A stretch of DNA of 64,000 nt from a bacterium (GCA_037130175.1 JBAXTN010000002.1:56455-120454); one strand, 5' to 3'; shown: positions 13,303-59,934, counted from the stretch's first letter. Program-made: numbers and translations. Notes: a model not told the origin generated them from the letters alone.

Positions 13303-15036
13303 CTAATTCTTTTTATATTCCCAAAGAGTTACTTTTAAATCATCTGGTGTCATCCATTCCTTTATAGGCTTAAAGTTAGCGTCACGCGCTGCCTGTATCA
13401 TAAATGGTCTTATAATAGCTGGGGCCATATCACTATGGGGCTTGTCAGTAGTTAACAAATAAGTGTTCTGATTATTCATTTTTTTTAGATCTTCTAACCA
13501 TTTTTTATATCCGTCAACTGATTCTCCAGTGAGCACTGGTTCCACTTGAAATATATTGTTTACACATCTATTTTTCATTAGTTGGTGCATATTAACAGTG
13601 TTCACATTATAAATATAATGTCTAAATCCGAATCCAATTGCTGAATTATTTAAATTAAGTCTTTTAAATATTTCTGCAGTATCTTGATTCAGTTTCCACC
13701 ATTGATAAGCGTTTTTTGGAATGATAGGCTCTGCGTCTATAGGAGAACCGCACTGTCCGCTAGCCTCATATTGTTGTATAGTACCCCTAGGTTCGATAAC
13801 TCTGACACAACCAATTAATGGAGCGTTAACAAAGTAAGCTTTGGAAAATATTCCGTGCAAGTCAAATAGTGGATATGCGCAAAATAAGGCAATGAATGCT
13901 AATAATGAAAATATGATTGCCCTGCATGCCGGATTAGTAGTTATTTTATAAATAATTAAAACACAAAATATTATTAATAATGGAACTAACGGCAGGAAGA
14001 AAGCACTCCCCTTGTTGCGTGTTGTGACAAGGGCGAGCCAAATTTCGATTAAAATAATCGCAATGGGCAGCAACTGTGAAGTTAGGATTTTTTTTGAAAA
14101 AACTTTTATACCTTGCTTATATAGAGAATTGCATAGCCACAAGATCCATGCAATTAATCCAATGATAAAAAAAACAAAGTATGGAAAAAGAACTTCTGCA
14201 CTAAATGCAACTATGGTCGATCGCCATGCATCTATTCCAAATTTTGACTGCTCAGTGCCAAATTCGACTGCCCTTTGACCATAACCGAAGCTGAAGAGAT
14301 ATTCAGCAACAAGTTTGCCGCTCGACCACAACCAAATGCTACTTGTCAATGCTGCGATGAGCATTGCTAGTAGAAACAGAATAAACCTCTTCCCTCTGTT
14401 TTGCTGCTCTACAGCTATGTAGATCAATGTTGCAAAGACAATGCCAGGGATAAAAGCAAGCGTCATGGATCTTGCTAATGGCAACATACCTAATGAAATA
14501 CTATAAACTAGTATCCACCCATGATTTTTGAATCGCTCTGTTTTTAATAGAGAAAAAATGGTAAATGTAAGAACTAATGTTGCGGTTATAGAAAAATGAA
14601 AACTACGACTATAATTGATTATTTCTGGTGAAAGTGCGGTTAGTAGAGCTGACATGGTACCCACCGTATGACCGCCGATCCTATTACCAAGCCAATAGGT
14701 CACGATAATACATCCACTACCAATGATTATTGGGATTGCAAAAGCCGCGACATCTGTCGGGCCGGTTATCATCAGAACAAGAGATTCTAGCGCAGTCGTT
14801 AAGGGTGCCTGTAAGCTTGGACTCAATACAGAGCGAATCCAACCACCCATCCCACCTTGCAGCGATCCGTAATAATTCATCAGAGATATTCCAAAATATC
14901 CTGCTTAATCAATATCAAATGGTAGTCCTCGTCTGTATAGCAGTACCCATCTAACATTTAGCAATGTACTAATGAAAACAATGATATATAATAGATTAAA
15001 CACAATGGATTTAATTATATTCTTTATTTTTTTCAT
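13303..15036 (-). pseudogene. ArnT/PMT-like GT-C glycosyltransferase with an internal nonsense codon
   Basis: The frame extends upstream of the listed 14880 start to ATG 15036: MKKIKN...TM1...GLPFDID*AGYFGISLMNYY, with TAA at 14905-14907 (codon 44). Confidence 0.75.
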
Positions 15037-16139: not shown

Positions 16140-18509
16140 TTAAAAATATCTATCAATAATAGACAGCCAAGCAGTGCAATGAAGCACCATACAAAGAATA
16201 CTAAATAATAAAACACAAAGGATTTTATTATGAGTAGAATTATCGAAGAAATATATTCCGGCTCGTCTATATCCTTCATACACAGCCGGCAATAAAAACA
16301 GATATGGACCTACTAGATAGCGGCTATTTAATGTAATATTGTTCTTATTGTAACATATTGATAGACTTATGAGCAAGACAACTATCGATATTATATTTAT
16401 TATAATAAATAAAAACTCCTTGTTGTTATCTTTTCTGAAGACCACAGAAATAATCAAAAAAGTAAAACCGAGCAAACACATATACCTTTGAAAATCTACG
16501 AATAATTGCGGCATCGGTGTATCCAACCATCCAAAGTTTCCCCAAAAAGACAGAGTTACCCAACAATCTGGGGCATTCGAATAGAATCCGCTAAAGAAAG
16601 ATGAAAGAACATGCAATACATACTGACAGGTTGAATTGTCATAGGGTTTTTCAGTGAAATAAAAATATATAAAGACAATAGGTAGCAAAGGAATTAAACT
16701 AATCAACATAAATAGAGTAAACTTCCTACTAGAGTTGTAATATTTACGGATCAAAAAACCAAACAAATAAAATAAAAATGAAATCAATGTTACGATTATT
16801 CCAAAATATATAATTATTAAATTAGAAGATAATAAATCATGAAATAATTTTTTGTTTATTTTATCGAAGGCCGGTGTAATAGTTTCAGATAGTAAGGGAG
16901 AATTTCCCGAAATAGATTCGAGTAATAAAAATAAAATTATTATAGTTCCATTAAAAAAACTATTAAAAAGAAGAAATCTAATTTTATTTAATTTTATTGA
17001 TAATACTTGCTCTAGTCCTAATTTAAACCAGTACAAAGGAAGTAGTATTCCCCAGAAAGTAATTCCGACCAAACCGTTGTCTGATGAATATGCAGATATA
17101 CAAATTCCGAATCCAATTAGAATCCCAATAATTATATCAAACTTCAAATTATTATCTCTCCAATTACAAGCCCACATCATACCAAGTGCAATAGATTGGA
17201 TCACATATCCTCCAATTAAAAATGGGTAGTTTGATACACCCATTGAAAAAAAAGCGATGCATGGTGAAAGCAAAATCGGAGCTGATAATAGCAAACCAAA
17301 TTTTACTTTCATTCCAGAATACAATACTCCAATTATAGGTATTATTATGCAAATACTTATGAATATTATATTTATTAATCGCAGAGAAAATAGCATTACT
17401 GATGAAGACTTTGAAGACAATAGATGAGAAATTGCAATCCAACTAACAGTTCCCATTAAAGATCTTTTCAGCGGAGTTATTCCTATGTGGTGAGCCCAGA
17501 TGCCTGATTCAGTTCGCCCCATATCAGCACTTGATATTTTTTCATCTGTATGAAACTTTATTCTTTCGAAGTTTCCTAGATTAGCTAGCATCAAGGCATC
17601 TTTAGACAAATCATCTCGGTTAGTTAATTTCGAATATGTTAAAAAGTGATTTGGCTCATCTGGTGCATGAAATGGAGGAAAGAGAATGCAGTATACTAAT
17701 CCTACACTAATGAACATCAAAGATATTCCTGTTGCTAAGGAGCAACCATACCCCCCTTCCTTTGAATGTGAGTGTATAATGAGTGCAATTAAGGCTATAG
17801 TCCAAATAAATCCAGATGTTATTAATATAACATAAATAATTCCTTCATCATTTCCCCATCCCCATACATATGAAATAAGCTGTGCTTTTGTACAGAGTTT
17901 TCCATGTACTGTCCCATCAATCCATCCATAGATACTCACAAATCCATTTTTCCCTTCTTTCGATGTCCAATGTGTCCATAGCAAAGTTGATATTGGATAG
18001 TTTTCTGAAAATTCTCCAACTAAAGCTAAATCGGTTATCCCTTGAGTAAGGAGATTCACTGAAATGGTATGAGCAGTTTGGGACGGGATTATATCTTCCG
18101 AAATCTGCTTTGAAAATTCTAACTTCCTATTTTCCCTGATTAGCGCCCTTTTTTTTGTTGAATATCTCGCTAATATTTTTCCGGAAATGCTGTCTGATAC
18201 CACTAATTCACCAGCTACAATTTTTCCAGTTTTCCAATTTGATACAAACAATAACCCAATGGTTTCTGGATATCTACAACCTGGTGTTATATCGCCATTT
18301 AATTGCACTTCTTGGCGAAATAAATATTTATTTATTCGCGATGATTTTAAGCCAATAATGATAGGTTGATTTAGAAATGATTTTTTTTCTAAGGGAATTG
18401 AAAAAAATGCCTCAGGTCTTACTGTCAGGCATGGTTGCTTAAGTTCATAAAATAGAACTAAGAATCCAATAAGTGAAAGAAAGCATGTCGCTACAATAGA
18501 TTTTTTCAC
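16140..18509 (-). CDS. Large membrane protein, DUF2142-like GT-C with an N-terminal extracytoplasmic domain
   Basis: PPFHAPDEPNHF motif, FWGNFGWLD, late RY; many TMs; very AT-rich. Confidence 0.7.
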   Translation of the reverse strand: MKKSIVATCFLSLIGFLVLFYELKQPCLTVRPEAFFSIPLEKKSFLNQPIIIGLKSSRINKYLFRQEVQLNGDITPGCRYPETIGLLFVSNWKTGKIVAGELVVSDSISGKILARYSTKKRALIRENRKLEFSKQISEDIIPSQTAHTISVNLLTQGITDLALVGEFSENYPISTLLWTHWTSKEGKNGFVSIYGWIDGTVHGKLCTKAQLISYVWGWGNDEGIIYVILITSGFIWTIALIALIIHSHSKEGGYGCSLATGISLMFISVGLVYCILFPPFHAPDEPNHFLTYSKLTNRDDLSKDALMLANLGNFERIKFHTDEKISSADMGRTESGIWAHHIGITPLKRSLMGTVSWIAISHLLSSKSSSVMLFSLRLINIIFISICIIIPIIGVLYSGMKVKFGLLLSAPILLSPCIAFFSMGVSNYPFLIGGYVIQSIALGMMWACNWRDNNLKFDIIIGILIGFGICISAYSSDNGLVGITFWGILLPLYWFKLGLEQVLSIKLNKIRFLLFNSFFNGTIIILFLLLESISGNSPLLSETITPAFDKINKKLFHDLLSSNLIIIYFGIIVTLISFLFYLFGFLIRKYYNSSRKFTLFMLISLIPLLPIVFIYFYFTEKPYDNSTCQYVLHVLSSFFSGFYSNAPDCWVTLSFWGNFGWLDTPMPQLFVDFQRYMCLLGFTFLIISVVFRKDNNKEFLFIIINIISIVVLLISLSICYNKNNITLNSRYLVGPYLFLLPAVYEGYRRAGIYFFDNSTHNKILCVLLFSILCMVLHCTAWLSIIDRYF

Positions 18510-18595: not shown

Positions 18596-20458
18596 TCAAG
18601 AAATCTTATATTCAGGAACTATTCTGTTCAGCCACTTTTTAAGTTCATCTTTACTCATAGAGTGAAGTTGAGAAGATATGTGATTCAATTCATGAATAAT
18701 CGAATTATTAAATGAATTTCTTATCAAACATCTAACTTTAGGGTGAGTTGTAAGTATAATGTTTTCTCCCTCATGAATCGGCTCTTCGTAGAGTTTCTCA
18801 CCTGGACGGAGTCCAGTAAATTCGATTTTAATATCTTCGTCTGGTCTAAACCCACTTAGTTCGATCATCTGTCGAGCTATATCATTAATTTTTATCGGAT
18901 CCCCCATATCAAGCACAAAGACCTCACCTCCCTTGGACTGTGTTGCACTTTGAAGTATAAGCCCAACAGCTTCAGGAATACTCATGAAGTAGCGGGTTAC
19001 ATCCGGATGGGTTACTGTAACAGGTCCTCCCCATTCGATCTGTTTGCGGAATGTTGGAATGACACTTCCAGATGACCCAAGAACATTGCCGAACCTGACC
19101 GATGACAAAATTGTATTATTCTTTGGATCATGTTGTACAGCTGCCACAGTGAGTTCCGCAACTCTCTTAGTAGCTCCCATAACATTGGTTGGGTTCACTG
19201 CTTTATCTGTTGAAACAAGAATCATTTTTTTGCTGGCATGTCTTGAAGCGGCTAGAGATATTACCATCGTTCCAATCGAGTTGTTAAGGATTGCCTCATC
19301 CGGCTGTCTTTCCATGAGTGGAACATGCTTGTGAGCCGCCGCATGGAAAACCAGTTCCGGCTTTTCTTTTTCAAAGACGCCTTCTACCCGAGCCTCATTG
19401 CAAATACTTCCAGCAACAGGTTCAATATCAATCCATTTCCAATCACGAACAAGCTCCTGTTCAATGGCAAAAAGAGCCGGCTCACTCCTCTCCAACAAGA
19501 TTATTTTTTTAGGCCCTCTACTTGCAATTTGACGACAAAGTTCGCTTCCTATACTTCCTCCAGCTCCAGTGACTAAGACAACCTTATCACGAATCAGTGA
19601 TTCAATTGCTGTGTCATCAAGTCTGACTGGATCTCGTCCAAGTAAATCTTCGGACTCCACATGACGCAGGTGGCTTACCGTAACATGACGATGTAGAAGC
19701 TGAGTAACCGAAGGAAGAATATCATGCTGAACCCCTGTCTTATTCAGAATCTCAACAGTTTCACGCACGACACCAGGAGATGCTCTTGGCATCGCTATTA
19801 TAGCATGGGTTATTTGTAAACTGTTAACAATCTCCGGTAAGTCAGCACGGTTACCCATGATTTTTCTTCCATGGATTGCACTTCCTTTTTTTTGGGGGTC
19901 ATCATCAACAAAACAGATAACATCCATCCCCAATCCTGATTTTGATTGAATCTCGTGCATAAGAGAGGCTCCCGCTTCCCCTGCCCCTATGATGGCTACT
20001 TTCTTACGGCGCAAATGTGCGATTTCTGAATCGGCTTTGCCTTCACGATAAATTCTCATGAGCGTCCTCAAAGAATAAAGCGTCCCTACGGAGATGAGAA
20101 AGTCAGTCATAATTACACCCCTTGGGACGACATGACTTCCCTTACTTCCATACCAGATGCAAAGCGCAATCAGCGTCGTTGTTCCCATCGCCAGAATCAC
20201 ACGCTTGGCATCAGAAAGACTAAAATATGTGAGCAGACTCCTAAACTGACCAAAGATTAGTAGAGTCGCCAGCTTTATGGGAAGTATCCAGAGGAGTGTT
20301 ACTTTAAATCCTAGCCAATATTCTTTCGGAACCGCAAAATCGAAACGAAGAAGTAAGCTCATCCACAGCGAGAAGATGGCAACTGTCCCATATCCTATCG
20401 CCAGAATAATATTTCTAGTATACATGGGAAAAAGTGACGAAAATAAAAGTTTTTTCAT
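18596..20458 (-). CDS. pglF: Membrane-bound UDP-GlcNAc 4,6-dehydratase (PglF/WbpM/CapD family)
   Basis: 4 N-terminal TMs, GAGEAG, TGAGGSIGSE, HAAAHKHVP, STDKAV.P.NVMGATK, RFGNVLGSSGSV, GLRPGEKLYEE. Confidence 0.92.
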   Translation of the reverse strand: MKKLLFSSLFPMYTRNIILAIGYGTVAIFSLWMSLLLRFDFAVPKEYWLGFKVTLLWILPIKLATLLIFGQFRSLLTYFSLSDAKRVILAMGTTTLIALCIWYGSKGSHVVPRGVIMTDFLISVGTLYSLRTLMRIYREGKADSEIAHLRRKKVAIIGAGEAGASLMHEIQSKSGLGMDVICFVDDDPQKKGSAIHGRKIMGNRADLPEIVNSLQITHAIIAMPRASPGVVRETVEILNKTGVQHDILPSVTQLLHRHVTVSHLRHVESEDLLGRDPVRLDDTAIESLIRDKVVLVTGAGGSIGSELCRQIASRGPKKIILLERSEPALFAIEQELVRDWKWIDIEPVAGSICNEARVEGVFEKEKPELVFHAAAHKHVPLMERQPDEAILNNSIGTMVISLAASRHASKKMILVSTDKAVNPTNVMGATKRVAELTVAAVQHDPKNNTILSSVRFGNVLGSSGSVIPTFRKQIEWGGPVTVTHPDVTRYFMSIPEAVGLILQSATQSKGGEVFVLDMGDPIKINDIARQMIELSGFRPDEDIKIEFTGLRPGEKLYEEPIHEGENIILTTHPKVRCLIRNSFNNSIIHELNHISSQLHSMSKDELKKWLNRIVPEYKIS

Positions 20459-20481
20459 TCAATATTTGCCTCTTGCTGTAC

Positions 20482-21669
20482 TCATCGTACTGCCCTCTTC
20501 ATTATCTCCGTGAGTACATCAGTAACTTTATCAATGTGTTTTTCAAGCAATGTGGGATGAACTTGGAACATAAGACTTGTCTCGCCGAGTTGTCGGGCAA
20601 CTGGAAGTCTTGTTTCTGGCCTCCAAGTTGTTCCCTCAAAGGCTTTCTCAAGATATATTTCCGGACATGATCCGGTCAGGCAAGGAACCCCTGCCTCTTG
20701 AATTTCCATCATAATTCGATCCCTGGTCCACTCATCTTTTAATAGTGTGTTAACAACAAAAACATAGGCCTTGTAAGCAGCATGCCCCCCCCCCTCCACA
20801 ATCTTTGGAGATCGTAGGCCAGGCAATTCATCAGCAGCTTTCCAGATGCATTGCGCATTACTAAGTCGTTGCTGCGTCCACGCTTCCATCTTCTTTAACT
20901 GGATACGCCCCATCACTCCCTGTATTTCTGTCATCCGCCAGTTCGTTCCAAAACTTTCATGAAGCCATCGAAAACCTGGCCCATGGTTGCCATGGTAAAC
21001 CGTCTCCCAGTTCTTCCCGTGATCCTTGTGAGACCACATAGCCTTCCAGAGATCAGGGTCGTTTGTGGTCACCATCCCCCCCTCTCCTCCAGTTGTCATG
21101 ATTTTATCTTGGCAAAATGACCATGTACCCACATCGCCTATACTGCCAACCATTTTTCCTTTATAAGATGCACCGTGGGCTTGAGCACAGTCTTCAATAA
21201 CCCTGATCCCGTGTTTTCTGGTCAATTCCAGAATCGGATCCATGTCACAAGGTGCACCTGCAAGATGCACACAGATCACGGCCTTTGTCCGAGATGAAAT
21301 TCGCTGAGAGATGCTCTGTGCCGTGATATTTTGCGTAAATTGATCAACATCAACAAATATTGGAGCGGCTCCAACCAGAACAATTGAGCTGACGGTTGCA
21401 AAGTAACTTCTTGGAGTAACGATCACCTCGTCACCAGGGCCAATACCCAAAGATTTCAGCGCTAACTCGATAGCGACGGATCCATTGCTGAGTGCGACAG
21501 CGTGAGCAGTGCCTGAAAATTCCGCAAATTCCTTTTCAAAAAGGCGACACTCCTCTCCTGTCCAGTAATTGACTTGTCCGGATTGAAGTACTTTGCTCAC
21601 AGCCGCAATTTGTTCCTCTGTGTAAGAGGGCCAAGCAGGCCAGAGTAATGTGCTTTCTCGGGTACTCAT
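20482..21669 (-). CDS. pglE: DegT/DnrJ PLP-dependent sugar aminotransferase (PglE-like)
   Basis: EDCAQAHGA, SFCQDKIMTTGGEGGM, GTNWRMTE; lies between pglD and pglF homologs. Confidence 0.88.
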   Translation of the reverse strand: MSTRESTLLWPAWPSYTEEQIAAVSKVLQSGQVNYWTGEECRLFEKEFAEFSGTAHAVALSNGSVAIELALKSLGIGPGDEVIVTPRSYFATVSSIVLVGAAPIFVDVDQFTQNITAQSISQRISSRTKAVICVHLAGAPCDMDPILELTRKHGIRVIEDCAQAHGASYKGKMVGSIGDVGTWSFCQDKIMTTGGEGGMVTTNDPDLWKAMWSHKDHGKNWETVYHGNHGPGFRWLHESFGTNWRMTEIQGVMGRIQLKKMEAWTQQRLSNAQCIWKAADELPGLRSPKIVEGGGHAAYKAYVFVVNTLLKDEWTRDRIMMEIQEAGVPCLTGSCPEIYLEKAFEGTTWRPETRLPVARQLGETSLMFQVHPTLLEKHIDKVTDVLTEIMKRAVR

Positions 21670-22316
21670 TTGCTTGACCTAACGGCTGTCTTTATAGGCT
21701 TTGCGGGCACTCCAGTCACGACACATCCTTGAGGAATATCTGAAACTACAGCCGCCCCGGCACCGACCATCGCTCCGGCTCCAATCGAGATGCCCTGTTT
21801 AACAGAGCTACCCACACCTATCATGGCAAGGTCTCCTACACACACTGATCCGGCAAGATGCACACCGGGACAGATATGAACTCCTGCACCGAGTCGGCAG
21901 TCATGATCCACCGAGGCACCTGTGTTGATAATATCTCCTTTTCCTATTTCCGTACCGATATTTACTGCTGCGTTTGCAAAAATTACTGTTCCATTTCCAA
22001 CCAGACTTCTTTTGCTCACAACCGCCCTAGGGTGGATAAGAGAAGGCAACGCCCCTCCACACCGCTCCACCTCATCCATCAGCTCTTTTCTGGCTGTATT
22101 GGAGCCTATCCCAAGAGCAAAATCACATCCTCCAACAGCAAGTTGACTTAATTCGGATACCCGTCCGATAACCTGCCATTCCTCCCATATCTCTAATGCC
22201 GGATAGCGATCATCAAGAAACACGATCTCGCACCATTTGTCCAGCAAATCGCAAAGGTCGGCTACCACCTTCCCATGTCCGCCTGCTCCAATAATTACAA
22301 TCCGTTTACTTCTCAT
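21666..22316 (-). CDS. pglD: Sugar N-acetyltransferase (PglD/NeuD family, hexapeptide repeats)
   Basis: IIGAGGHG, INTGASVDHDC, left-handed beta-helix repeats, terminal GVPAK. Confidence 0.88.
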   Translation of the reverse strand: MRSKRIVIIGAGGHGKVVADLCDLLDKWCEIVFLDDRYPALEIWEEWQVIGRVSELSQLAVGGCDFALGIGSNTARKELMDEVERCGGALPSLIHPRAVVSKRSLVGNGTVIFANAAVNIGTEIGKGDIINTGASVDHDCRLGAGVHICPGVHLAGSVCVGDLAMIGVGSSVKQGISIGAGAMVGAGAAVVSDIPQGCVVTGVPAKPIKTAVRSSK

Positions 22317-22905
22317 TTCTAGTTCCTTTAAATTTCTCGGCACTCACATTGTCTGACTGATTTACGCCGCTTCCATAAAGCACTTTAAGTAACGTCAAAA
22401 ATAGAATTTTTAAATCCAAAAAAGTAGTTTTATTATCAACATACCATACATCGAGTCGGAACTTATCCTCCCAAGAGATAGCATTTCTACCGTTAACCTG
22501 AGCCCATCCGGTGATACCAGGTCGCACTTCATGTCGACGGTTCTGCTCAGCAGTATAAAGCGGAAGATACTCAACCAGCAATGGCCGCGGCCCAATCAGA
22601 CTCATATCCCCTCTGAGCACATTCAAAAGCTGAGGAATCTCATCAAGACTCATCCTTCGCAGCAATTTTCCCAATGCTGTTACCTGATGATTATGACAAA
22701 GTGATACCCCTTGACTAGGAGTTGTCTGTACCATGGTTCGAAATTTCAGCAAAAAAAACACCCTTCCATTTTTTCCAGGGCGAGGCTGGACAAAATATAT
22801 CGGCCTTCCCATGGCGCACAAGATCGCAAAACTAACGACTAGAAAAACCGGAGAGAGAATCACGAGTAAGAATATTGAGATCAATATATCAAAAATTCTC
22901 TTCAT
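22306..22905 (-). CDS. pglC: Monotopic phosphoglycosyl transferase (PglC-like, initiating)
   Basis: KRIFD, KFRTM, SLDEIPQL.NVL.GDMS.IGPRP, RPGITGWAQVNGRN. Confidence 0.9.
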   Translation of the reverse strand: MKRIFDILISIFLLVILSPVFLVVSFAILCAMGRPIYFVQPRPGKNGRVFFLLKFRTMVQTTPSQGVSLCHNHQVTALGKLLRRMSLDEIPQLLNVLRGDMSLIGPRPLLVEYLPLYTAEQNRRHEVRPGITGWAQVNGRNAISWEDKFRLDVWYVDNKTTFLDLKILFLTLLKVLYGSGVNQSDNVSAEKFKGTRNEK

Positions 22906-24044
22906 TTCTGTATGTCACTTGAAATTGTTTGGTAAAAACCCAAAGTATTTGCCGTCACAATCGCCATACTGAACTGAGTCTGCACACGCATTCTGGCGGC
23001 ATTCCCCATATGCAAGCGTTCCGTAGGATCGCTTGCTAAACGAGTCATTGCCATTGAAAGCTCTTTGGCGTTACCAGAAGCGTGAAGAATGCCTGTTTGC
23101 CCATCAACGACCGCATCGGTTAATCCATAGATCCGGGAGGCGATAGCCGGGAGGCCAACTGCTGCTGCCTCGATAATAGTGGAGCCGAATCCCTCCCGAT
23201 GACTCGGAAGGACAAATATATCACCTGCAGCCATGTATAACTCAGGGGTGTCCGTATATCCCACCCTCACCATACGATGCCTTGCCGGAGAAGTCTCTAT
23301 AAGGAGTTCCATTGATTCCTCATCCGGCCCGACAATAAGCAGCCAAATATTAGCCAGACTCTCTGTAACCTCTTCAAAAGCTCGCAGTAGTTCAGGAAAT
23401 CCCTTGTCACGATTCAGCCGACCGACATAGAGAAAAACTACATCTTCTGCAGAGATACCATTTTTTTCTCGTAGAGCATGTCGGGCAGTGGGATTCGGAT
23501 GGAATCGAAGCAGATTGACACCACTTATCGACCCATGCCCTAAAACAGTAGACTTTTTAGTAGCGACGACCCCGTTTTCGATTAAAAACTTTTGCTGGGA
23601 AAAGCTATCCACTATTACATGCGTGGCAAAATGGGCAATCATCTTGTCCATCAAGCGAAGCGCAAAACGGTATACTCCCGACTTAGTCGCCCAAACCTGG
23701 CCCGTAAAGGTATGAACCCTGATGGGAATTCCGGCAAAAAATGCAGCAGACATGGAGAGAAGACCAGCCTTAGGGGTAACCGAATGGACAATTTGAAACC
23801 GTTCATTTCGAAAATATAAAAATAGAGAAAATAGGGCTTGCAGATCCTCCCACGGGCGAATCTTTCGCTCAATTGGCACATGCTTGAAATGCGCAGCTAT
23901 TTCGAACTCATCAAGGAACGTACTTCTGGTAGAATTGGCTACCACAGAAAGCTCATATTGAGTCGCAATCTCCCGAAGTTGATCACGCAGGAATGCGACT
24001 ACAGTCATTGGTGAGGAGACGACAAGACAAAACTTGGTTTTCAT
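22902..24044 (-). CDS. GT4 glycosyltransferase (PglA/CapM-like)
   Basis: HSVTPKAG, GRLNRDKG, PSHREGFG..IIEAAA. Confidence 0.85.
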   Translation of the reverse strand: MKTKFCLVVSSPMTVVAFLRDQLREIATQYELSVVANSTRSTFLDEFEIAAHFKHVPIERKIRPWEDLQALFSLFLYFRNERFQIVHSVTPKAGLLSMSAAFFAGIPIRVHTFTGQVWATKSGVYRFALRLMDKMIAHFATHVIVDSFSQQKFLIENGVVATKKSTVLGHGSISGVNLLRFHPNPTARHALREKNGISAEDVVFLYVGRLNRDKGFPELLRAFEEVTESLANIWLLIVGPDEESMELLIETSPARHRMVRVGYTDTPELYMAAGDIFVLPSHREGFGSTIIEAAAVGLPAIASRIYGLTDAVVDGQTGILHASGNAKELSMAMTRLASDPTERLHMGNAARMRVQTQFSMAIVTANTLGFYQTISSDIQK

Positions 24045-24048
24045 ACAT

Positions 24049-24834
24049 CTAATCACCGCTAACTCTATACCGAAGTGAGTAAAAACCCCGTCCGTAGAAC
24101 TCTCTCAGTGCAAGCTCCGTCTGACTGAGAGCGACGGCAGAAGGGCATAGATCCAAGATGCTTATCTGCGATTCCGTAGAGACGATAAAGCCAACAGGAT
24201 ATTCCGAAACATGGAACCCTTGGGCTTCGAATTGAGCTTTCGCTCTGGGCATATGAAATGCTGATGTGACAAGCAATATTCTCGAGATGTTTGCTGCTTC
24301 ATTAACATTATGGGGAGAGCGAACATTCATTAGATGAGCCACAGCTGCTGCCTCAGCGGCCGTATTGAAGACCTTTTCGGTTGTCTTTATCGACTCTAAT
24401 GGCACGCCAAACCAGTGAGCGTAGAGCTTGAGTATTTCCCCCTCAGATAATGCACCGGGTTCCCAAGGAGCGGCTCCTCCAGTGAAAATCAGGAGTGGAG
24501 CCTTATTAGCGGAGTATAGCTCAATACCTCCAAAAAAGCGGTTGGCATCTTCCCATTCACTGATCTTTGCCTTTCCGGGAGCAACATTCCTACCACTACT
24601 GAGAACCACAATGGCATCTACGGATGGGGCATCTTGCGGCAAGCATCGTACGGCATCACCCTCGATGAGTTTCAGCGCCTGTTTCCCAACAAGGGGAGTA
24701 CTGCAAATATAAAGAAGAACAAGCCCTCCTACAATCAGCATCTGTCTCCTAATCGTCAGTCCTAAAAACATCAGGATTATAGCAACCCCTAAAGGTAAAA
24801 ACAATATGGGCACTATTTTACTCAGATAGATCAT
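24049..24834 (-). CDS. YdcF/DUF218 (ElyC/SanA-like) family protein
   Basis: AIVVL, FTGG, SEG, NT..EA, LLVTSAFHMPRA, terminal RE; two N-terminal TMs. Confidence 0.85.
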   Translation of the reverse strand: MIYLSKIVPILFLPLGVAIILMFLGLTIRRQMLIVGGLVLLYICSTPLVGKQALKLIEGDAVRCLPQDAPSVDAIVVLSSGRNVAPGKAKISEWEDANRFFGGIELYSANKAPLLIFTGGAAPWEPGALSEGEILKLYAHWFGVPLESIKTTEKVFNTAAEAAAVAHLMNVRSPHNVNEAANISRILLVTSAFHMPRAKAQFEAQGFHVSEYPVGFIVSTESQISILDLCPSAVALSQTELALREFYGRGFYSLRYRVSGD

Positions 24835-24839
24835 CGTTG

Positions 24840-27737
24840 TTAATCCACTATGTTTTTCACAACAGCAAGCCGCCCATGCCAAACAAAAAAATGTCCAGCC
24901 CCCATAAGCACTAGTAGAAAAAAAATACTAATAATAGATAGGCTCCACCCAGAGGATACGGCAAATGAGATCAGTGCCCATATACTCCATGTCATTACCA
25001 GAACGCAAGGCATGAACATATTCATAGCACACTTCTTCAACATTACCAAGACAAGGTAAAGCGTTCCTATGAGAGCACCTCCAAGTGACGCATAGGCGAT
25101 ACCAAGCATTCCAATTTTAGGAACGAGAATCCAGCTCAGAGCAACACTTATGACCAGCGATAGAGCTGATGCTAGAACCGTTTGGGATGAACGCATTGTA
25201 AGAGCAGAAGCCTTGATCATAATTGTCCCTACAATCACTATGGGAAGCTGCACGACGCCGATCCTAATAACATGAGACAATGTTTGAATCTGTTGCTCCG
25301 TGACATGCGAACCATTAAACAGCATGGCGACTATCGGTTCCGCAAACTCGACTACAGCAAGAACTATAATACCACCAATCCATGTGCCACAGAACAGAAG
25401 AAATACAAAATAGTTGCCGAGTTGAGCGACGCTACAAAGATTAATTATTCTCGCCATATGAGGAAGAAGGACGGTCGTAATACATGCTACGATAAGACCA
25501 TTAAATAACAAAACCATCTTGCTGGAAAACGCCCATCCGGCAACTGTGCCACCCCCGACAGTTCCTGCAAAAAAGTAGTTCATCGGAGATACTACCGCCG
25601 CAAAGAATGAAGCGAATACAAGCCATCTGTATGTTCTGAAAACTGATTTTACAGACTGTGAACTTACTACTGCCGATGGTGTAATGGTAATCCCATCAAC
25701 TTGACATAGGATCGCTACGATTATCACATTAACGAGTGTGCCAACAACCATACCGATAATGGCATAAACTGCAAGTTGGTCTGATGGAGCAATGAGAATT
25801 GCGGTAACCGCACAGATTGGAACAGAAAGTGATGCCAAAGAGGAATCACGAAATCGGTGTAGAGAATTTAGCACCGCATTTCCTATAATTGTCCAGGCGC
25901 TTAGAAACACTATCGGGGCGAAAAGCCTCATCAGTAAAGCCCCATCAGCGATTTGGCGGGCACCATGGCTACCGAGTATAATGCGCATGGCTGGAACAGC
26001 CAAAATAAAACAGACAGCCGAACTTGCTAACATCATAAGACTACCCCAACAGATAATCTGGCGAATAAATTGGCGGCTTTTACTGCGATCACCATTGGTC
26101 CACATTTTCAAAAATGGCATTGTAACTGCATCCGACATTGGTAATGCCAAACAGTTGACCAAAACCATCGGTAGCATCATAGCTGAGAATAGCGAATCCG
26201 TACTGGAATTTAGACCTTTAGCTTGAATAAGTAGCAGGTCTCTTAAAAGGAATCCGAGATAGCCAAGGAAGGTGATTAATATCGTTATTCCACTCGATCG
26301 TAAGAGTGCTATAAGACCAAGTGAGGAACAACGCTGAGCAACGGGAGATAAACTAATTGCCTCAAATATAGGAACACCCTTTTGATGAGATTGCTCTATG
26401 TACAACAAAAAGCTTCTCGTTATACTTACCCATCCAATGGCACCACTAAGTAAAAAAAACATCCAAAAACCATATCTCTCACGATAAATAGTTCCAATAT
26501 TTGGATTTGTATAGTCCAGCACCATGAGGAGTGTGGCGCAAAAAAAGATTCCACTAATTAGGGAACAACTTGGGTTTCGCCACACGAGTACAATCAATCC
26601 ACAAAAGAAAAAATACCAAATTGCAGTTTCTATGGCCCCTATTAGCCGAGGAAGGGTAACACGCTGACTCCATGAGTTTGGAAATGGAGCGAATAACCCG
26701 ACGAAGAGGGCACGTGGCATATAGGATAATACTCCGAGAGTATCCGACGGCATGAGATGTTCATCCACCCCCGATCCTGAACTTACCGACTGGGAGTACG
26801 CGATAAAATGAACGCGCAACTCGCTCACACGCTTAAAAATAGCGTCAATTCGTGGAGGCAAAAAGGGTGTCTCTTTCCATTTCCAATGTTCAGATTCATG
26901 GCTTATGGCACTGGACGATTCGTGGCTTATGGCACTCTCACCATATATCAGGCTTGCACTAGACGATTTCGACGCGACAAAACCAACTGTCCCAACTATG
27001 GATACAAAGAAAAGCAGGACTAAATACTTTTGCCAACATTTCCTAGGATTTTTTTGAAACAGATTGGAGCAAAAGAAAGCTAACCACGAAATTAAAAATG
27101 CGACTGCAATAATTATAGTAAAGTGCGGCCTGAACACCGAGAGCAAAACTGAAGCCAAGCCAGCAACAGTTAAAATCCGAAGAGTACTAAAAGTCGAGTT
27201 GTTGGACTGCTGCAAATACAGCCAGCAGCATAACATTGTCAATATCCCGGCAATAGCAAATGCATCTTTTAGATTTTGTCCATACCAGAGCAACGCGGAA
27301 GGGAAGATCAGAAATACAATTCCTGCAATGGCACCTCCAGTTCGTCCAATCTTGCCTGAGCATAAAAGTGGGCCCATAAGATAGATCATCAGAGCTCCTG
27401 TTGCGTGGGCGGCAGCATTCAAAGGAATAAATGCCGCTGGATTAGGTCCCATAAGAGCATATAGAGCTGCTAAAACACCGACATTAGCTGTGAATGGTTG
27501 CCCATTAATGATGGGCATAAGTTTCCATTCAGACCAACCGATAGTATTGATTTTTTTAGCAAGGCTCTCAGCCGCATCATGAAAAATAATCGCATCACTC
27601 TTCATCAATCCATGCCCAGCGTGCATTCCGGGGATCATTGGCAACAAAATTTTCTGCAAGACAAGTGCTAGCAAGCAGGAATAGAAAAATCCGCATGCCC
27701 AATATAATATACAGCGACTTATTTCCTGCTTATTCAT
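24840..27737 (-). CDS. Fusion: Wzy/GT-C-like membrane domain plus MurJ/MviN-like flippase
   Basis: N-terminal about 440 aa polytopic with SDA..FH, LKD and NIGTIYRER; C-terminal about 480 aa with GFLLRDLLL...G....DSLF.A..LP, ITTVLLP and 12-14 TMs. Confidence 0.7.
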   Translation of the reverse strand: MNKQEISRCILYWACGFFYSCLLALVLQKILLPMIPGMHAGHGLMKSDAIIFHDAAESLAKKINTIGWSEWKLMPIINGQPFTANVGVLAALYALMGPNPAAFIPLNAAAHATGALMIYLMGPLLCSGKIGRTGGAIAGIVFLIFPSALLWYGQNLKDAFAIAGILTMLCCWLYLQQSNNSTFSTLRILTVAGLASVLLSVFRPHFTIIIAVAFLISWLAFFCSNLFQKNPRKCWQKYLVLLFFVSIVGTVGFVASKSSSASLIYGESAISHESSSAISHESEHWKWKETPFLPPRIDAIFKRVSELRVHFIAYSQSVSSGSGVDEHLMPSDTLGVLSYMPRALFVGLFAPFPNSWSQRVTLPRLIGAIETAIWYFFFCGLIVLVWRNPSCSLISGIFFCATLLMVLDYTNPNIGTIYRERYGFWMFFLLSGAIGWVSITRSFLLYIEQSHQKGVPIFEAISLSPVAQRCSSLGLIALLRSSGITILITFLGYLGFLLRDLLLIQAKGLNSSTDSLFSAMMLPMVLVNCLALPMSDAVTMPFLKMWTNGDRSKSRQFIRQIICWGSLMMLASSAVCFILAVPAMRIILGSHGARQIADGALLMRLFAPIVFLSAWTIIGNAVLNSLHRFRDSSLASLSVPICAVTAILIAPSDQLAVYAIIGMVVGTLVNVIIVAILCQVDGITITPSAVVSSQSVKSVFRTYRWLVFASFFAAVVSPMNYFFAGTVGGGTVAGWAFSSKMVLLFNGLIVACITTVLLPHMARIINLCSVAQLGNYFVFLLFCGTWIGGIIVLAVVEFAEPIVAMLFNGSHVTEQQIQTLSHVIRIGVVQLPIVIVGTIMIKASALTMRSSQTVLASALSLVISVALSWILVPKIGMLGIAYASLGGALIGTLYLVLVMLKKCAMNMFMPCVLVMTWSIWALISFAVSSGWSLSIISIFFLLVLMGAGHFFVWHGRLAVVKNIVD
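26893..26936. repeat. In-frame tandem duplication, 24-nt period (SAISHES twice)
   Basis: gattcatggcttatggcact (26893-26912) and gattcgtggcttatggcact (26917-26936). Confidence 0.85.
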
Positions 27738-28626
27738 TATTCAGACTACGAGATACTATTGATTGCGCTATGCTGAACCATCCATCGATAACTCCACGAA
27801 CTGCCCTATAATTAAATTGTAATAATGCATGAAAAAAGAATCCGATATTGAGCCATAAAAAGGCAACTTGAGCGAACGGAATAGTATTTAAGTTTTTTTT
27901 GTAATGATAATAGTAAAATTCCACTTTACTTGAATAAATCCACCTTATGCTTTGTCTCTCTATAGGGGAAGGATAATGATAGATTTTTGATAGGGGCTGA
28001 ATAAATAGTTTGGTTCGCAATCCAACACGATACGAAAAATCAATATCCTCCCCGATGCACGAACCGGTAAGCTTTTCATCGAATTTTTCATTGTCAAATA
28101 CTTCGCGACGATACGCCCCTACTCCGGGCAAGGTATTTGTCTGAATAATATTTTTTCTGTTTGAAAAAAAGATCTCTTCTCTATTTTGTCTAAAAGGCCC
28201 GATATAAAATACTCTAAATAATATTTTTTTCAGAATTGATATTTTTCTATCTGGCTCGATTACTAAACCTGATACCCCTCCTGCTATAGGTGACTTAAAT
28301 GCTTTAAGAAGATAATAAAAATAGTCCGGATCTAAAATGGCGTCATCATCTAAGAACTGAATAACCTGACCTTTTGATTCTTTAACGCCACGATTTCGTG
28401 CTGCTGTCAGTCCCCGGTCTTCTGGAGCATGAATGTAACGAATACCGGGCGCATGCGGACAACCGTGCAAAATTACTTCAAAAATACTAGGATCTGACAT
28501 TTCTTGAGATCCATCCACAATAACAACTTCGTCTATACGAACAGATTGGTTGCCAATAGATTGAACCGCAGCTAAAATCGTGCTTCCTCGAGACTTAGTT
28601 GGAATGATTACGGAAATAGCTGTCAT
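27730..28626 (-). CDS. GT2 glycosyltransferase
   Basis: ISVIIPT, GLTAARN.G, FLDDD, GEDIDFS. Confidence 0.88.
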   Translation of the reverse strand: MTAISVIIPTKSRGSTILAAVQSIGNQSVRIDEVVIVDGSQEMSDPSIFEVILHGCPHAPGIRYIHAPEDRGLTAARNRGVKESKGQVIQFLDDDAILDPDYFYYLLKAFKSPIAGGVSGLVIEPDRKISILKKILFRVFYIGPFRQNREEIFFSNRKNIIQTNTLPGVGAYRREVFDNEKFDEKLTGSCIGEDIDFSYRVGLRTKLFIQPLSKIYHYPSPIERQSIRWIYSSKVEFYYYHYKKNLNTIPFAQVAFLWLNIGFFFHALLQFNYRAVRGVIDGWFSIAQSIVSRSLNNE

Positions 28627-38853: not shown

Positions 38854-40377
38854 TTAAAACTGAAAATACAAAAACTCACTTACCTTATTTATAGATATTA
38901 TAGCAATAAATAATATTAAACCAGTGATAATTCCATACAAGGGTGTTAGCGGCCATATATTCGATTGGGGTTGAGGAAGTTCATCACATGTTATATCATA
39001 GTGTGAAAGTAGCCTCTGGGTATTCGGGAAAAACCAGACAACAATAAGACCAACAAATAACCATGCTACTGTTTCTGGAAATGAGATTGATGACCCAGGT
39101 ATAAATCCATTAAATTGCAAGCTACTAATGTTGAGGAATTTATACTTAACTGAAAGAGACTCTGCAAATGATATTCCATTGAAACCAAACATTCCCCTCC
39201 AGAGGGCATATGTAGAATTTATATTTGTCGCCCTGAAAGGTATCCATGCAACAACTACACACAGAAAAGTCAAAACTACAGAAAATGCATGGTTAAATCG
39301 AAAATAATATTTCAATCTAAAATGCTTAAGATCACTCCAGAAATGGTTTATAATTAAATATGTTCCGTGTAAGCCACCCCAAAGAACAAAATTCCATCCG
39401 GCACCATGCCACAATCCACCAAGAAGCATTGTAATTAATATATTATAGTAACGAATGGATACACCTTTTCTATTTCCACCTAATGGTATATATAAATAGT
39501 TTTTAAGAAAAATTGATAACGATATATGCCAACGACGCCAAAAATCAATAATACTTGATGCCTTATAAGGAGAATTAAAATTTAGTGGCAGTTTTATACC
39601 AAACATTTTAGATATTCCAAGTGCCATGTCAGAGTATCCAGAGAAATCAAAATATATTTGTAATGCAAAGGATATACCAGCAGTCCATGCACCAATAAAC
39701 ATTGGAGGGTATTCTGTTATGTTTGCATTGAAAAGTGGAGTGGAATATCTTGCGTATTGTTCTGCAAATATAACCTTTTTAAATAACCCGAATGAAAACA
39801 AAGTCAATCCAGCCGCTATCGATTGATAAATTAATTTGCTAGTTTCCTTATTTGCAAACTGAGGCATCATTTGCTTGTGATGCAGCACTGGCCCTGCAAT
39901 AAGATGAGGAAACCATGTTACAAATAGTAAATAATGTATGAAGTTTCGTTCTATCGAGATTTTTCGATAGACATCAACAAGGTACGCAATTTGAGTAAAT
40001 GTAAAAAATGAAATTCCTAGCGGTAGCACTATATCAATGTAATTATATTTAAATCCGATTGCATTTGCCGATGATATAAAAAAGTTTGCATATTTAAATA
40101 CACCCAAAAGACTTAAATTAAATATTATGAATATAATTAGTAATATTTTTTTTCGATCTATTTTTGCTGTAGCTATTAAATTTCCGGCATTATAATTTAC
40201 TAAAATTGATCCAAGAAGAACTATAACAAATTTTGGATTCCAATATCCATAAAATAGTATAGACGCAAAGGCTAGCCATAGAAGCGACAATCTATAGCTT
40301 TTTCTTCGGATTAAGTAATAAGCAACTATTACTATAGGTAAATATGCAAATATAAACTCGAAAGAATTAAATAACAT
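38854..40377 (-). CDS. MBOAT O-acyltransferase (AlgI/PatA/DltB family)
   Basis: MLFNS..F, LPLGISFFTF, AGP, QIYFDFSGYSDMA, FWRRWHISLS, GLWHGA, terminal FLYFQF. Confidence 0.93.
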   Translation of the reverse strand: MLFNSFEFIFAYLPIVIVAYYLIRRKSYRLSLLWLAFASILFYGYWNPKFVIVLLGSILVNYNAGNLIATAKIDRKKILLIIFIIFNLSLLGVFKYANFFISSANAIGFKYNYIDIVLPLGISFFTFTQIAYLVDVYRKISIERNFIHYLLFVTWFPHLIAGPVLHHKQMMPQFANKETSKLIYQSIAAGLTLFSFGLFKKVIFAEQYARYSTPLFNANITEYPPMFIGAWTAGISFALQIYFDFSGYSDMALGISKMFGIKLPLNFNSPYKASSIIDFWRRWHISLSIFLKNYLYIPLGGNRKGVSIRYYNILITMLLGGLWHGAGWNFVLWGGLHGTYLIINHFWSDLKHFRLKYYFRFNHAFSVVLTFLCVVVAWIPFRATNINSTYALWRGMFGFNGISFAESLSVKYKFLNISSLQFNGFIPGSSISFPETVAWLFVGLIVVWFFPNTQRLLSHYDITCDELPQPQSNIWPLTPLYGIITGLILFIAIISINKVSEFLYFQF

Positions 40378-40382
40378 TGATA

Positions 40383-42197: not shown

Positions 42198-42241
42198 ATG
42201 TATTTTAAATATTCAATTATTTGCCATCTGTTTTACATTAA

Positions 42242-43033
42242 TTAATTGTTATTTGCGAGAGGAACCCATGACGCAAGATGATATCGGCCCTCAATAAGCT
42301 TTTCTCTTGTTTTCATTAGCCCATCGCCGACAAAATTATACAAATGAGCGGTGGCAACGGCATCAATCCGTGGATCTGAAAGTCCGCTCTCAAAATGATG
42401 ATGATTGCCAGCTCCCCCGGCCAGAATCAGAGGCATAGGAAACTTTTCCGGTAGGATATCCAGCATTTGAAAATCATACCCCTGTCCAGTTCCGTCACGA
42501 TCCATTGAATTGAGGTAGAGCTCCCCAACTGGGAGTGAGACGATGGACTGGATAATTTTACTAGCCTCCTCCTCAAGAATGCACTCTCCGTTTCCATGGC
42601 GGATATGATAGGTTTCATTCCCGTTTCTCTTGCAGTCTATTGAGCCGACCACACACTGCTGGCCAAATTCACCGGCCAGTTCTGTGATGAATTCCTGGTC
42701 CGTGAATAGCGATGAATTCACTACCACTTTATCAGCACCAGCACGCAGCAATGCAGAGGCATCTTCCAATCGGTGTATTCCTCCACCAGCTGCTACAGGG
42801 ATAAAACACCCATCTGTCAGAGATTTCAAACACTCACTAAATGCCGCTATGTTGCGCTCCCCTCTTGTGACATCAAGCACAATTAATTCATCTATTGCAA
42901 AAGCTATTCTTGAAAAGTTATAGTTTTTTTTAAGCCATTTCAGATCTCCCACCCTCTGTAATCGAAAATTCCTGCTCAGCATGAAATACCCTTCGCAATA
43001 AAGCAGGGTAAAAATAATCCTTTTTTTTGGCAT
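42242..43033 (-). CDS. hisF: HisF-like cyclase subunit of sugar amidotransferase (WbuZ-like)
   Basis: DEL..LD, GGGI, GADKVVVN, MDRDGTGQGYD; in an LPS locus beside a WbuX homolog. Confidence 0.85.
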   Translation of the reverse strand: MPKKRIIFTLLYCEGYFMLSRNFRLQRVGDLKWLKKNYNFSRIAFAIDELIVLDVTRGERNIAAFSECLKSLTDGCFIPVAAGGGIHRLEDASALLRAGADKVVVNSSLFTDQEFITELAGEFGQQCVVGSIDCKRNGNETYHIRHGNGECILEEEASKIIQSIVSLPVGELYLNSMDRDGTGQGYDFQMLDILPEKFPMPLILAGGAGNHHHFESGLSDPRIDAVATAHLYNFVGDGLMKTREKLIEGRYHLASWVPLANNN

Positions 43034-44792: not shown

Positions 44793-44851
44793 GATGATTT
44801 TTTAGTTTGAATCAGTTGAGACCGATCCTGGAGAGAATAACCTGCCGTAAG

Positions 44852-44962
44852 TTATTGGGTTGCATGAGATAATATGATGAAAAAGTTGTGATCGACAGGA
44901 GTAGAGGCCTTTCCTAAGAAGGGTTCACAAAGTGGGCTTTTTCCCTTGTGATCAGACTGCAT
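44852..44962 (-). pseudogene. legC: Probable 5' remnant of a LegC-type aminotransferase gene
   Basis: ATG 44962 overlaps the legB stop and reads MQSDHKGKSPLCEPFLG then unrelated sequence (36 aa). PLxEPxxG matches LegC/DegT N-termini, and the position is syntenic. Confidence 0.55.
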
Positions 44963-45932: not shown

Positions 45933-45951
45933 ATTTTTCGTGGTTTTTTAT

Positions 45952-46983: not shown

Positions 46984-47120
46984 GGTTTATTTTTTTGACG
47001 AGGCGTTTTGGCCGGCACACTGGCAACGGTATCATGCGGTCCAGAAGCCAGCCGAGCATTCAGGACTGATCTATCATGCCTCTCATTGCCAATAATTACG
47101 CAGTTCATAGGAGTATTCAT
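46980..47120 (-). pseudogene. neuD: Internally deleted NeuD/LegH acetyltransferase remnant
   Basis: 46 aa: MNCVIIGNERHDRSVLNA (cf. IIGxGGHAxSV) joined directly to DTVASVPAK (cf. terminal VxGVPAK); stop overlaps the ptmE start. Confidence 0.65.
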
Positions 47121-47133
47121 GGATAAGAAGATA

Positions 47134-57490: not shown

Positions 57491-57505
57491 AATGCTGACT
57501 TGAGA

Positions 57506-58558: not shown

Positions 58559-58560
58559 AA

Positions 58561-59907: not shown

Positions 59908-59934
59908 TTTATTAAGACCTTTGTTTGTGTTGTT

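Follow-up and report, generated by a model that had tools for sequence, protein, structure and literature searches.

In pathways of the Wzx/Wzy (or WaaL) type, an oligosaccharide primed on undecaprenyl diphosphate (Und-PP) by a phosphoglycosyltransferase (PGT) is handled by a MOP flippase and by a polytopic enzyme on the outer face of the membrane. In the wall polysaccharide pathway of Lactococcus lactis, the Wzx-family protein WpsG exports a lipid-linked oligosaccharide, the GT-C enzyme WpsI polymerises it and the GT-C enzyme WpsJ attaches it to a rhamnan exported by an ABC transporter (PMC9574508). Here, a single polypeptide combining a flippase with a GT-C domain is described. It is encoded by an open reading frame (ORF) of 965 amino acids (aa) within a 64,000-nucleotide (nt) stretch of a bacterial genome (GCA_037130175.1 JBAXTN010000002.1:56455-120454; hereafter the window), and it is a genuine, conserved single-chain fusion of a GT-C glycosyltransferase (GT) domain (N half) to a MurJ-like MOP flippase (C half).

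Compared with MurJ (MviN), the C half of the fusion matches the Pfam model PF03023 over 428 of 451 positions and models best on MurJ structures, but the protein bears a 450-residue N-terminal GT-C domain, sits in a glycan locus and misses the cut-off of the lipid II flippase equivalog. Its context of PGT, GT4 and GT2 enzymes fits the logic of Wzx/Wzy systems, from which it differs in the predicted ArnT/STT3-type GT-C fold of its outer-face enzyme and in the joining of flippase and enzyme in one chain. The lactococcal WpsG/WpsI/WpsJ pathway appears to be the closest working analogue, since there too GT-C enzymes acting on oligosaccharides rather than single sugars come after a MOP flippase, and the window also encodes an ABC-dependent polymer (Wzm/Wzt with an RgpF-like GT). 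The Wps proteins are separate, and for their donor a C55-monophosphate link and initiation by a GT2 (WpsA/B) have been proposed (PMC9574508), whereas the initiating enzyme in the window is a PglC-type PGT, giving a diphosphate link.

The window operon also resembles the Campylobacter system in its PglF/E/D/C/A-like set, and Campylobacter PglB, which acts on a diNAcBac-primed Und-PP-glycan, is a GT-C enzyme using a diphosphate-linked oligosaccharide (structural Z-score to the N half, 16.7). However, the large periplasmic C-terminal domain of PglB and STT3 is absent from the N domain of the fusion, and the flippase is of MOP type, whereas PglK is of ABC type; a PglK-like ABC protein is encoded elsewhere in the window. 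Three-component systems, such as GtrA/B/C and a MATE flippase with a GT136 GT-C enzyme (PMC11127046), likewise pair a flippase with a GT-C enzyme but need a polyprenyl-phosphate sugar synthase, and none was adjacent or fused among the family proteins scanned. A conceptual precedent for enzyme and flippase in one polypeptide is MprF, a lipid synthase fused to a flippase domain. The folds and chemistry of MprF (aminoacyl-phospholipids) are unrelated, and its enzyme acts before flipping, whereas that of the fusion would act after it.

Domain architecture of the fusion

The ORF opens with ATG and contains no internal stop. An earlier annotation of the window made from the DNA alone (the sequence-only reading) had placed one uninterrupted 965-aa frame at 24840-27737; these coordinates proved exact, and the strand, which it had left unstated, is minus, as for all other scanned ORFs of at least 150 aa in the window. 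The ATG at 27737 is favoured over the later start of a 944-aa database form because residues 9-22 are conserved in aligned homologues. Across the interdomain linker, contigs assembled from four public metagenome runs of lake or freshwater origin, drawn from three studies, agreed with 0 substitutions and 0 indels, in support of the linker sequence. These are assembled contigs rather than raw reads; three of the runs may be the source of the assembly, and one was not flagged as a possible source. The contigs of one run (X8) leave 26634-27000 uncovered, which is a gap in cover. Beyond contig agreement, the stronger argument against a frameshift artefact is the conservation of the fusion, and full-length homologues, spanning the linker, were found in many unrelated taxa.

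The C half matched PF03023 with 83.4 bits (cut-off 27.4; residues 508-936, model positions 6-433). In a Foldseek search with the full-length model, MurJ structures filled ranks 1-14 (E 3e-11 to 7e-8), with MATE and WzxE behind them, and the TM-score of the C half to MurJ structures (among them PDB 7WAX, 6NC6 and 5T77), normalised to the target, reached 0.78. The MurJ-like MOP flippase proposed by the sequence-only reading is borne out by these matches. The lipid II flippase equivalog TIGR01695 scored 86.4 bits, below its cut-off of 235.55. The genome assembly (2.59 Mb, 82 contigs, 96.5% complete) encodes a separate MurJ on another contig, which scored 398.6 bits to PF03023 and matched the C half by BLAST with E = 0.71. 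Because the equivalog cut-off was missed, a separate full MurJ is present and the two proteins are so dissimilar, the C half is predicted to be a paralogue within the MurJ family of MOP flippases, and it is not the lipid II flippase of the cell. The fused family has an invariant R-D pair (R499 and D500) in the first transmembrane (TM) segment, TM1, and an invariant Asp (D514) where TM2 begins; these presumably correspond to essential residues of Escherichia coli MurJ.

For the N half, an AlphaFold2 (AF2) model built from an alignment with 51 stand-alone relatives reached a predicted local distance difference test score (pLDDT) of 91.3 and a predicted TM-score (pTM) of 0.91. Against 48,161 representative chains, VIA-align placed GT-C or GT-C-related structures at all ranks from 1 to 20 (Z 20.8 to 9.4; 279-348 residues aligned), after which Z dropped to 7.7 at rank 21. 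ArnT was the top match (Z 20.8, 316 residues aligned, root mean square deviation 4.2) and AglB the second (19.7), with further matches to STT3B (17.7), Pmt1/2 (17.1), DPY19 (16.8), PglB (16.7) and ALG12 (16.6), down to ALG6 (9.4). Foldseek gave GT-C enzymes at ranks 1-24 and 26-28, rank 25 being a GPI transamidase subunit. WaaL (PDB 7TPG) appeared there at rank 49 (probability 0.23, TM-score 0.19-0.21) and lay outside the 50 listed VIA-align rows, although absence from that list does not exclude likeness.

In profile searches, residues 1-480 matched no Pfam family above cut-off and no NCBIfam model at E<=0.1. The best Pfam matches below cut-off were DUF6541 (16.5 bits, cut-off 29) and YfhO (16.1 bits, cut-off 28.5), both GT-C families, and all of the named GT-C families PMT_2, YfhO, DUF6541, STT3 and DUF2142 stayed below their curated cut-offs. 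Among 52 members of the N-domain family, DUF6541 was matched in three, YfhO in one and PMT_2 in one. The Wzy_C profile (PF04932) did not match the N half even at E<=1, and a language-model look-alike search returned unnamed bacterial clusters together with a few partly labelled PMT_2 or STT3. The model thus predicts a compact GT-C glycosyltransferase of the ArnT/AglB/STT3/PMT type, without a large periplasmic domain and presumably of class GT-C_A. It is probably not of the WaaL/Wzy type, so that of the Wzy or GT-C identity suggested from the sequence, the GT-C part stands and the Wzy part probably does not.

The N-half motifs picked out by the sequence-only reading all occur and, in alignments of 52 members (stand-alone set) and 66 members (fused set), coincide with the positions that the family conserves most. 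In the model, D48 (nt 27594-27596) falls within the first external loop, after TM1 and ahead of the first loop helix. It is invariant in both sets and is a candidate catalytic Asp, a conserved acidic residue in this loop being typical of GT-C enzymes; R308, E370, R419 and R421 are likewise invariant in both. The motif N-L-K-D occupies residues 155-158 and N-I-G-T-I-Y-R-E-R residues 413-421, with K157, D158, N413, G415, R419 and R421 invariant in the 66 full-length homologues, and a loop of about 100 residues extends from 259 to 361. Counting helices in the model gives about 10 membrane spans with both termini cytoplasmic, which fits the cytoplasmic N terminus of MurJ and the cytoplasmic GT2 or short-chain dehydrogenase/reductase (SDR) domains at either end of longer homologues. 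With this topology, the invariant polar residues D48, K157, D158, R203, R308, R342, E370, R419 and R421 would lie on periplasmic loops or at membrane edges.

The full-length AF2 model reached pLDDT 85.9 and pTM 0.84. Residues 458-460 and 462-471 of the linker, with pLDDT below 50, were the sole low-confidence stretch between the halves, and in alignments the linker is poorly conserved and varies in length. Since the full-length pTM is high with only the linker at low confidence, the model suggests a fixed arrangement of the two modules, which would suit the direct passing on of a flipped substrate.

Homologues and their gene neighbourhoods

A whole-protein word-indexed search returned 144 proteins at E<=0.001, of which the best 120 were mostly 900-1000 aa long, with 90-100% query cover and 33-85% identity. 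Their sources name them 'lipid II flippase MurJ', 'MviN/MurJ' or not at all, and named carriers include Rhodoferax saidenbachensis, Cohaesibacter gelatinilyticus and a Sphingorhabdus sp. Seven of the 120 listed were 1144-1349 aa long, and six of these seven also carried a GT2 domain. With the N half as query, phmmer found 1404 of 1.84 billion cluster representatives at E<=0.001 (895 at 1e-10 and 300 at 1e-30). The best 150 of these comprised 57 two-part (850-1099 aa), 11 three-part (at least 1100 aa) and 62 stand-alone proteins (400-560 aa), with 20 partial or other forms. Judged from the record titles of 80 fetched loci, fused forms occur in Verrucomicrobiota, Beta-, Gamma- and Deltaproteobacteria, Nitrospiraceae and Bacteroidia, and stand-alone forms in Acidobacteriota, Chloroflexota, Bacillota, Cyanobacteria, Actinomycetota and Proteobacteria. 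The N domain was found at E<=1e-10 in none of 200 other sampled genomes of the window's own phylum, and this rarity is the patchy pattern usual for surface-glycan genes.

In eight long forms that were scanned, the additional domain was an N-terminal GT2 of the EpsE/TuaG/WcaA type (four proteins), a C-terminal GT2 (one) or an N-terminal HpnA-like SDR (three). The C-terminal GT2 lies behind the flippase in P0119, and in P0159, P0162 and P0189 the SDR replaces the GT2; no synthase of the GtrB/ArnC/DPMS type was present among the extra domains of these eight. The conserved core therefore consists of GT-C plus flippase, to which variable cytoplasmic enzymes are attached. The GT2 encoded upstream of the fusion in the window was considered as an ortholog of the fused GT2s and rejected, the identity being a generic 25-29% over the first 110-130 residues. 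The full-text literature searched, which leaves most subscription journals outside, yielded no account of MurJ or Wzx fused to a GT-C protein. Each module comes from a known superfamily; the GT-C family has no name, and the single-chain coupling is undescribed in that literature.

Related loci were classed as fused (41) or stand-alone (28); many contigs were short and near-duplicate loci were present (L017/L018, L022/L023, L024/L025 and L043/L044), so the locus counts are indicative only. Of 89 immediately neighbouring ORFs, 83 were scanned, six near-duplicates having been dropped. In other genomes, the immediate flanks of the fusion encoded GT4 (15 loci), GT2 (6), PGT (6, five PglC-type and one WecA-type) and DUF218 proteins (5), and otherwise sugar epimerases or dehydratases, aminotransferases and acetyltransferases. 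Within 7 kb, BLAST clustering placed a PGT of either kind in 15/41 fused loci, DegT in 12/41 and DUF218 in 7/41. A cluster of ORFs of about 536 aa in 13/41 fused loci was dismissed as a conserved partner and is spurious, its representative being an Arg/His-rich antisense ORF from a high-GC genome that belongs to no family.

For 23 fused loci, the full 7-kb flanks were available, and 11 of these contained no other ORF with at least five TM segments (this polytopic-ORF scan left out one listed ORF, L071:1-765). The extra membrane proteins in the other 12 were Wzx (5 loci), WecA-type PGTs, other GT-C proteins, an acyltransferase, an ABC exporter, a GGDEF protein and proteins of unassigned type; an MBOAT protein was seen only in L010, a fused locus without full flanks. 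Wzy_C was found in 0/23 full-flank fused loci, and across all 41 there was one match above cut-off (L009) and a weak one (L031). Of the stand-alone loci, 11/28 had a separate MOP flippase within 7 kb (8 Wzx-type, 3 MurJ-type), 4/28 had Wzy_C and 11/28 an asparagine-synthase-like gene. Because some loci carry an extra Wzx or Wzy_C, the GT-C protein does not simply replace Wzy everywhere.

In one of the stand-alone loci with a MurJ-type flippase (L063:6152-8976, Pyrinomonadaceae), the MurJ-like ORF lies directly behind the GT-C gene in another frame, representing a natural split form. At L020:6899-9193, a gene of the fused type is broken after about 472 codons while tblastn similarity continues; a frameshift, a pseudogene or an assembly error may account for this.

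The locus in the window

The fusion belongs to one long minus-strand array (Table 1). In the order of transcription, GT2s and sugar-modifying enzymes are followed by the upstream GT2, the fusion and the DUF218 gene, then by the GT4, the PglC-type PGT, the PglD-, PglE- and PglF-like enzymes and a 789-aa GT-C-like protein. The stop of the upstream GT2 overlaps the start of the fusion by 8 nt. Its nearest NCBIfam models were HpsN, EpsD, MftF, AglG and PglI, its nearest PDB sequences chondroitin synthase and PglI; in the NCBIfam scan there was no GtrB-like match and ArnC was not listed. It would therefore be a GT of the repeat-unit type, like the GT2s fused in the long homologues. The GT4 had TIGR03088 (stp2) as its best NCBIfam match (156.9 bits, below cut-off). 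The PglD-, PglE- and PglF-like genes (18596..22343) probably form the enzyme set for a di-N-acetylbacillosamine-type sugar.

Table 1. Positions in the window of the fusion, its parts and the adjoining genes of the array
Feature	Position	Strand	Basis
Whole 965-aa ORF (P0001): GT-C domain, linker and MurJ-like flippase domain	24840..27737	minus	ATG start, uninterrupted
N-terminal GT-C-fold glycosyltransferase domain (predicted), residues 1-452, about 10 TM	26382..27737	minus	AF2 model and structure searches
Interdomain linker, residues about 453-474, presumably cytoplasmic	26316..26381	minus	Low pLDDT
C-terminal MurJ-family MOP flippase domain (predicted), residues about 475-965, 14 TM	24840..26315	minus	PF03023 and Foldseek
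Upstream GT2 glycosyltransferase	27730..28626	minus	PF00535, 82.9 bits
Downstream DUF218/ElyC-like (Upr-like) protein, about 2 TM	24049..24882	minus	PF02698, 90.1 bits (cut-off 27.6)
GT4 glycosyltransferase, PglA-like operon position	22902..24056	minus	PF00534, 124.5 bits
Small PglC-type PGT (Bac_transf), primes Und-PP-sugar	22306..22905	minus	PF02397, 210.8 bits; EPS_sugtrans TIGR03025, 241.2 bits
PglD-like acetyltransferase	21666-22343	minus	PglD_N and Hexapep
PglE-like aminotransferase	20482-21669	minus	DegT, 323 bits
PglF-like dehydratase	18596-20458	minus	Polysacc_synt_2, 373.9 bits

The DUF218 gene is the ElyC/YdcF-like gene that had been noticed immediately downstream, and its family assignment was confirmed. 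The ElyC equivalog NF007794 scored 71.3 bits, below its cut-off of 205; an H-x-x-R motif is present (H210, R213), and translation probably begins at an ATG 17 residues into the ORF as listed (residue 17). In a preprint, the DUF218 proteins SanA, ElyC and YgjQ are renamed UprA, UprB and UprC and reported as periplasmic hydrolases that cleave the bond of envelope polysaccharide precursors to Und-PP and act as release factors, with a Thr-His-Arg-Glu catalytic cluster described for UprB and UprC (bioRxiv 10.64898/2026.10.14.759067).

Directly downstream of the PglF-like gene, the 789-aa protein (16140-18509, minus; about 12 TM) has an N-terminal extracytoplasmic region of about 230 residues followed by an A-P-D-E-P-N-H motif, its sole match being a weak one to DUF2142 (24 bits, below cut-off). 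It is probably a second GT-C enzyme of the operon and might draw on the same flipped glycan. A PDB sequence search with this ORF and with the ORF at 8588-10351 returned nothing at E<=1. The latter is one of three polytopic proteins (4889-6496, 8588-10351 and 13303-14880, all minus) around a DPM/AglJ/PpgS-like polyprenyl-phosphate hexose synthase (7392-8591, minus; AglJ 117.4 bits), which lies 16 kb from the fusion. One of the three matches PMT_2 and Agl23, one matches DUF2142 weakly and one (587 aa, about 8 TM) has no family; together with the synthase, they look like one or more conventional three-component periplasmic glycosylation systems.

At the other end of the window, a PglK/MsbA-like ABC half-transporter (53090-54868, minus) scored 335.6 bits to the PglK model (cut-off 1000), and a Wzm/Wzt pair adjoins an 841-aa RgpF-plus-GT4 enzyme within 54965-60801 (minus). 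The window thus encodes three different export devices for lipid-linked glycans, namely the PglK-like ABC protein, Wzm/Wzt and the MurJ-like domain. A sugar-tailoring block (38854-51835, minus) contains NeuB, a NeuC-like 2-epimerase, a CMP-sugar synthetase-like gene, SDRs, WbuX with HisH/HisF-like genes (acetamidino-type modification), a carbamoyltransferase and an MBOAT acyltransferase, which suggests a heavily decorated glycan with nonulosonic acid.

The sequence-only reading had recognised no other wzx or wzy in the window. For Pfam this holds, with no Polysacc_synt or Wzy_C match among the 51 window ORFs scanned, but the window does hold the PglK-like ABC protein, Wzm/Wzt and four polytopic proteins without a clear family, and Wzx and Wzy_C occur elsewhere in the genome. 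Wzz and Wza were likewise found on other contigs and not in the window. In this genome (G000), Wzy_C, Wzz/Wzc and Wza cluster on contigs C34 and C31 (loci L083, L084 and L087-L090) and Wzx lies on C39, so the gene content points to ordinary Wzx/Wzy-type pathways running as well.

Possible functions of the fusion

The explanation we prefer, with confidence slightly above even, is that the fusion is a flip-and-transfer enzyme, which carries an Und-PP-linked, bacillosamine-primed oligosaccharide across the inner membrane and there, on the periplasmic side, transfers it en bloc. From the observed fusion, both folds, the conservation of the fusion and its gene context, we infer what is flipped, which way the transfer runs and what accepts the glycan. 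The cytoplasmic neighbours (the PglF/E/D-like pathway, the PglC-type PGT, the GT4 and the GT2s) would build a short oligosaccharide on Und-PP; the C-terminal MurJ-family domain would flip it to the periplasmic face, where the N-terminal GT-C domain would use the flipped glycan directly, by en bloc transfer. The acceptor might be the next lipid-linked unit, making the protein a Wzy-independent polymerase, or another envelope glycan, e.g., the polymer exported by Wzm/Wzt of the same locus. The adjacent DUF218/Upr-like hydrolase may release or edit the Und-PP-linked product and recycle the carrier. The flip-and-polymerise or flip-and-ligate machine proposed by the sequence-only reading is thus retained as the most plausible reading; the gene context from which its support is drawn does not separate polymerase, ligase and single-sugar decoration. 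For the GT-C half taken separately, polymerisation of Und-PP-linked units is held only tentatively, attachment of the oligosaccharide to another glycan is rather doubtful, and addition of a single sugar from a separate undecaprenyl phosphate (Und-P) donor is unlikely. It is also no more than tentatively that we propose the N domain as the founder of a GT-C polymerase family which, with the fused MurJ-type flippase and an Upr-like release hydrolase, would form a compact polysaccharide route independent of Wzy, Wzz and WaaL.

Two arguments lead to the preferred flip-and-transfer function. The two modules probably act on the same lipid-linked glycan, because members of the GT-C family repeatedly occur either fused to a MOP flippase or near one (the Rosetta-stone argument). 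This glycan would be an Und-PP-oligosaccharide rather than an Und-P-monosaccharide, because PGTs and GT2s and GT4s of the repeat-unit type accompany the fusion and no GtrB-like enzyme was found among the adjacent or fused GT2s. In the window it would be primed with a bacillosamine-type sugar. A DUF218 protein directly behind the fusion fits a pathway with Und-PP-linked periplasmic intermediates, and it would be most needed if the product were a lipid-linked polymer without a ligase of its own.

Several points weigh against this function. Most GT-C enzymes use polyprenyl-monophosphate sugars, the use of diphosphate-linked glycans being confined to the STT3/PglB/AglB group; with ArnT first and AglB second, the fold search does not separate the two donor types. 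The context counts are modest (PGT in 15/41 and DUF218 in 7/41 fused loci), a separate Wzx is present in 5/23 full-flank fused loci, and Wzy_C in 4/28 stand-alone loci. Wzy proteins are hard to detect by profile, so finding none near the fusion says little. The conserved N-half residues are placed in the periplasm by counting helices, and the support for flip-and-transfer is drawn from sequences and models. The DPM/AglJ-like synthase of the window, although 16 kb away, could feed the GT-C half, and a MATE-family MOP flippase serves a single-sugar three-component system (PMC11127046).

These last points bear on a different arrangement, a compressed three-component decoration, in which the MurJ-like domain would flip a polyprenyl-monophosphate monosaccharide made by a GtrB/DPM-like GT2, and the GT-C half would add it to an exported glycan (O-antigen or the Wzm/Wzt glycan). 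It agrees with the usual mode of GT-C enzymes, with ArnT as the top structural match and with the MATE flippase of the GT136 system, and the synthase and the Wzm/Wzt pathway of the window could supply donor and acceptor. We nevertheless regard it as unlikely, since the adjacent and fused GT2s are of the repeat-unit type (EpsE/TuaG/HpsN/PglI-like) and not lipid-phosphate sugar synthases, PGTs making Und-PP-sugars stand directly beside the fusion in six loci, and DUF218, reported in the preprint to cleave Und-PP-glycans, recurs as a neighbour. The DPM-like GT2 of the window, moreover, sits amid three other GT-C-like genes able to use its product.

It is improbable that the halves are functionally independent and were fused for co-expression or membrane co-localisation, or that the GT-C half, without being catalytic, serves the flippase as a scaffold or holds its substrate. 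A fold by itself does not reveal a function, this GT-C family has no established activity, and the N domain has no periplasmic globular domain apart from the 100-residue loop; yet acidic and basic residues at the expected GT-C active-site positions are strictly conserved across the 52 stand-alone and 66 fused sequences, and the N domain has a gene of its own among 62 of the top 150 representatives, which argues for an enzyme in its own right. The database view, a lipid II flippase MurJ of the cell with an N-terminal extension, is highly improbable: it draws on the names given to homologues and on the Pfam match, but the equivalog score falls far below cut-off, the genome has its separate MurJ, the fusion sits inside a surface-glycan locus, and the N domain, unlike an essential housekeeping gene, was found at E<=1e-10 in none of the 200 other sampled genomes of the phylum.

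The flip-and-transfer reading touches a wider question, open for Wzx/Wzy, MurJ/SEDS and oligosaccharyltransferase systems: in what way the flippase passes a lipid-linked glycan, once flipped, to the enzyme acting on it. A natural, widespread single-chain flippase-transferase would make this hand-off testable in one purifiable protein. The N domain also represents a large GT-C family (1404 cluster representatives) without a Pfam or NCBIfam model. The public name 'lipid II flippase MurJ' is unlikely to be right, because this member misses the MurJ equivalog cut-off and its genome has a separate full MurJ, and corrected naming would improve the annotation of many environmental genomes. If the GT-C half is indeed a polymerase, many glycan clusters apparently without Wzy would be explained, and the Wzx/Wzy, ABC-transporter and synthase routes would be joined by another assembly pathway, one in which a single protein physically couples flipping to polymerisation.

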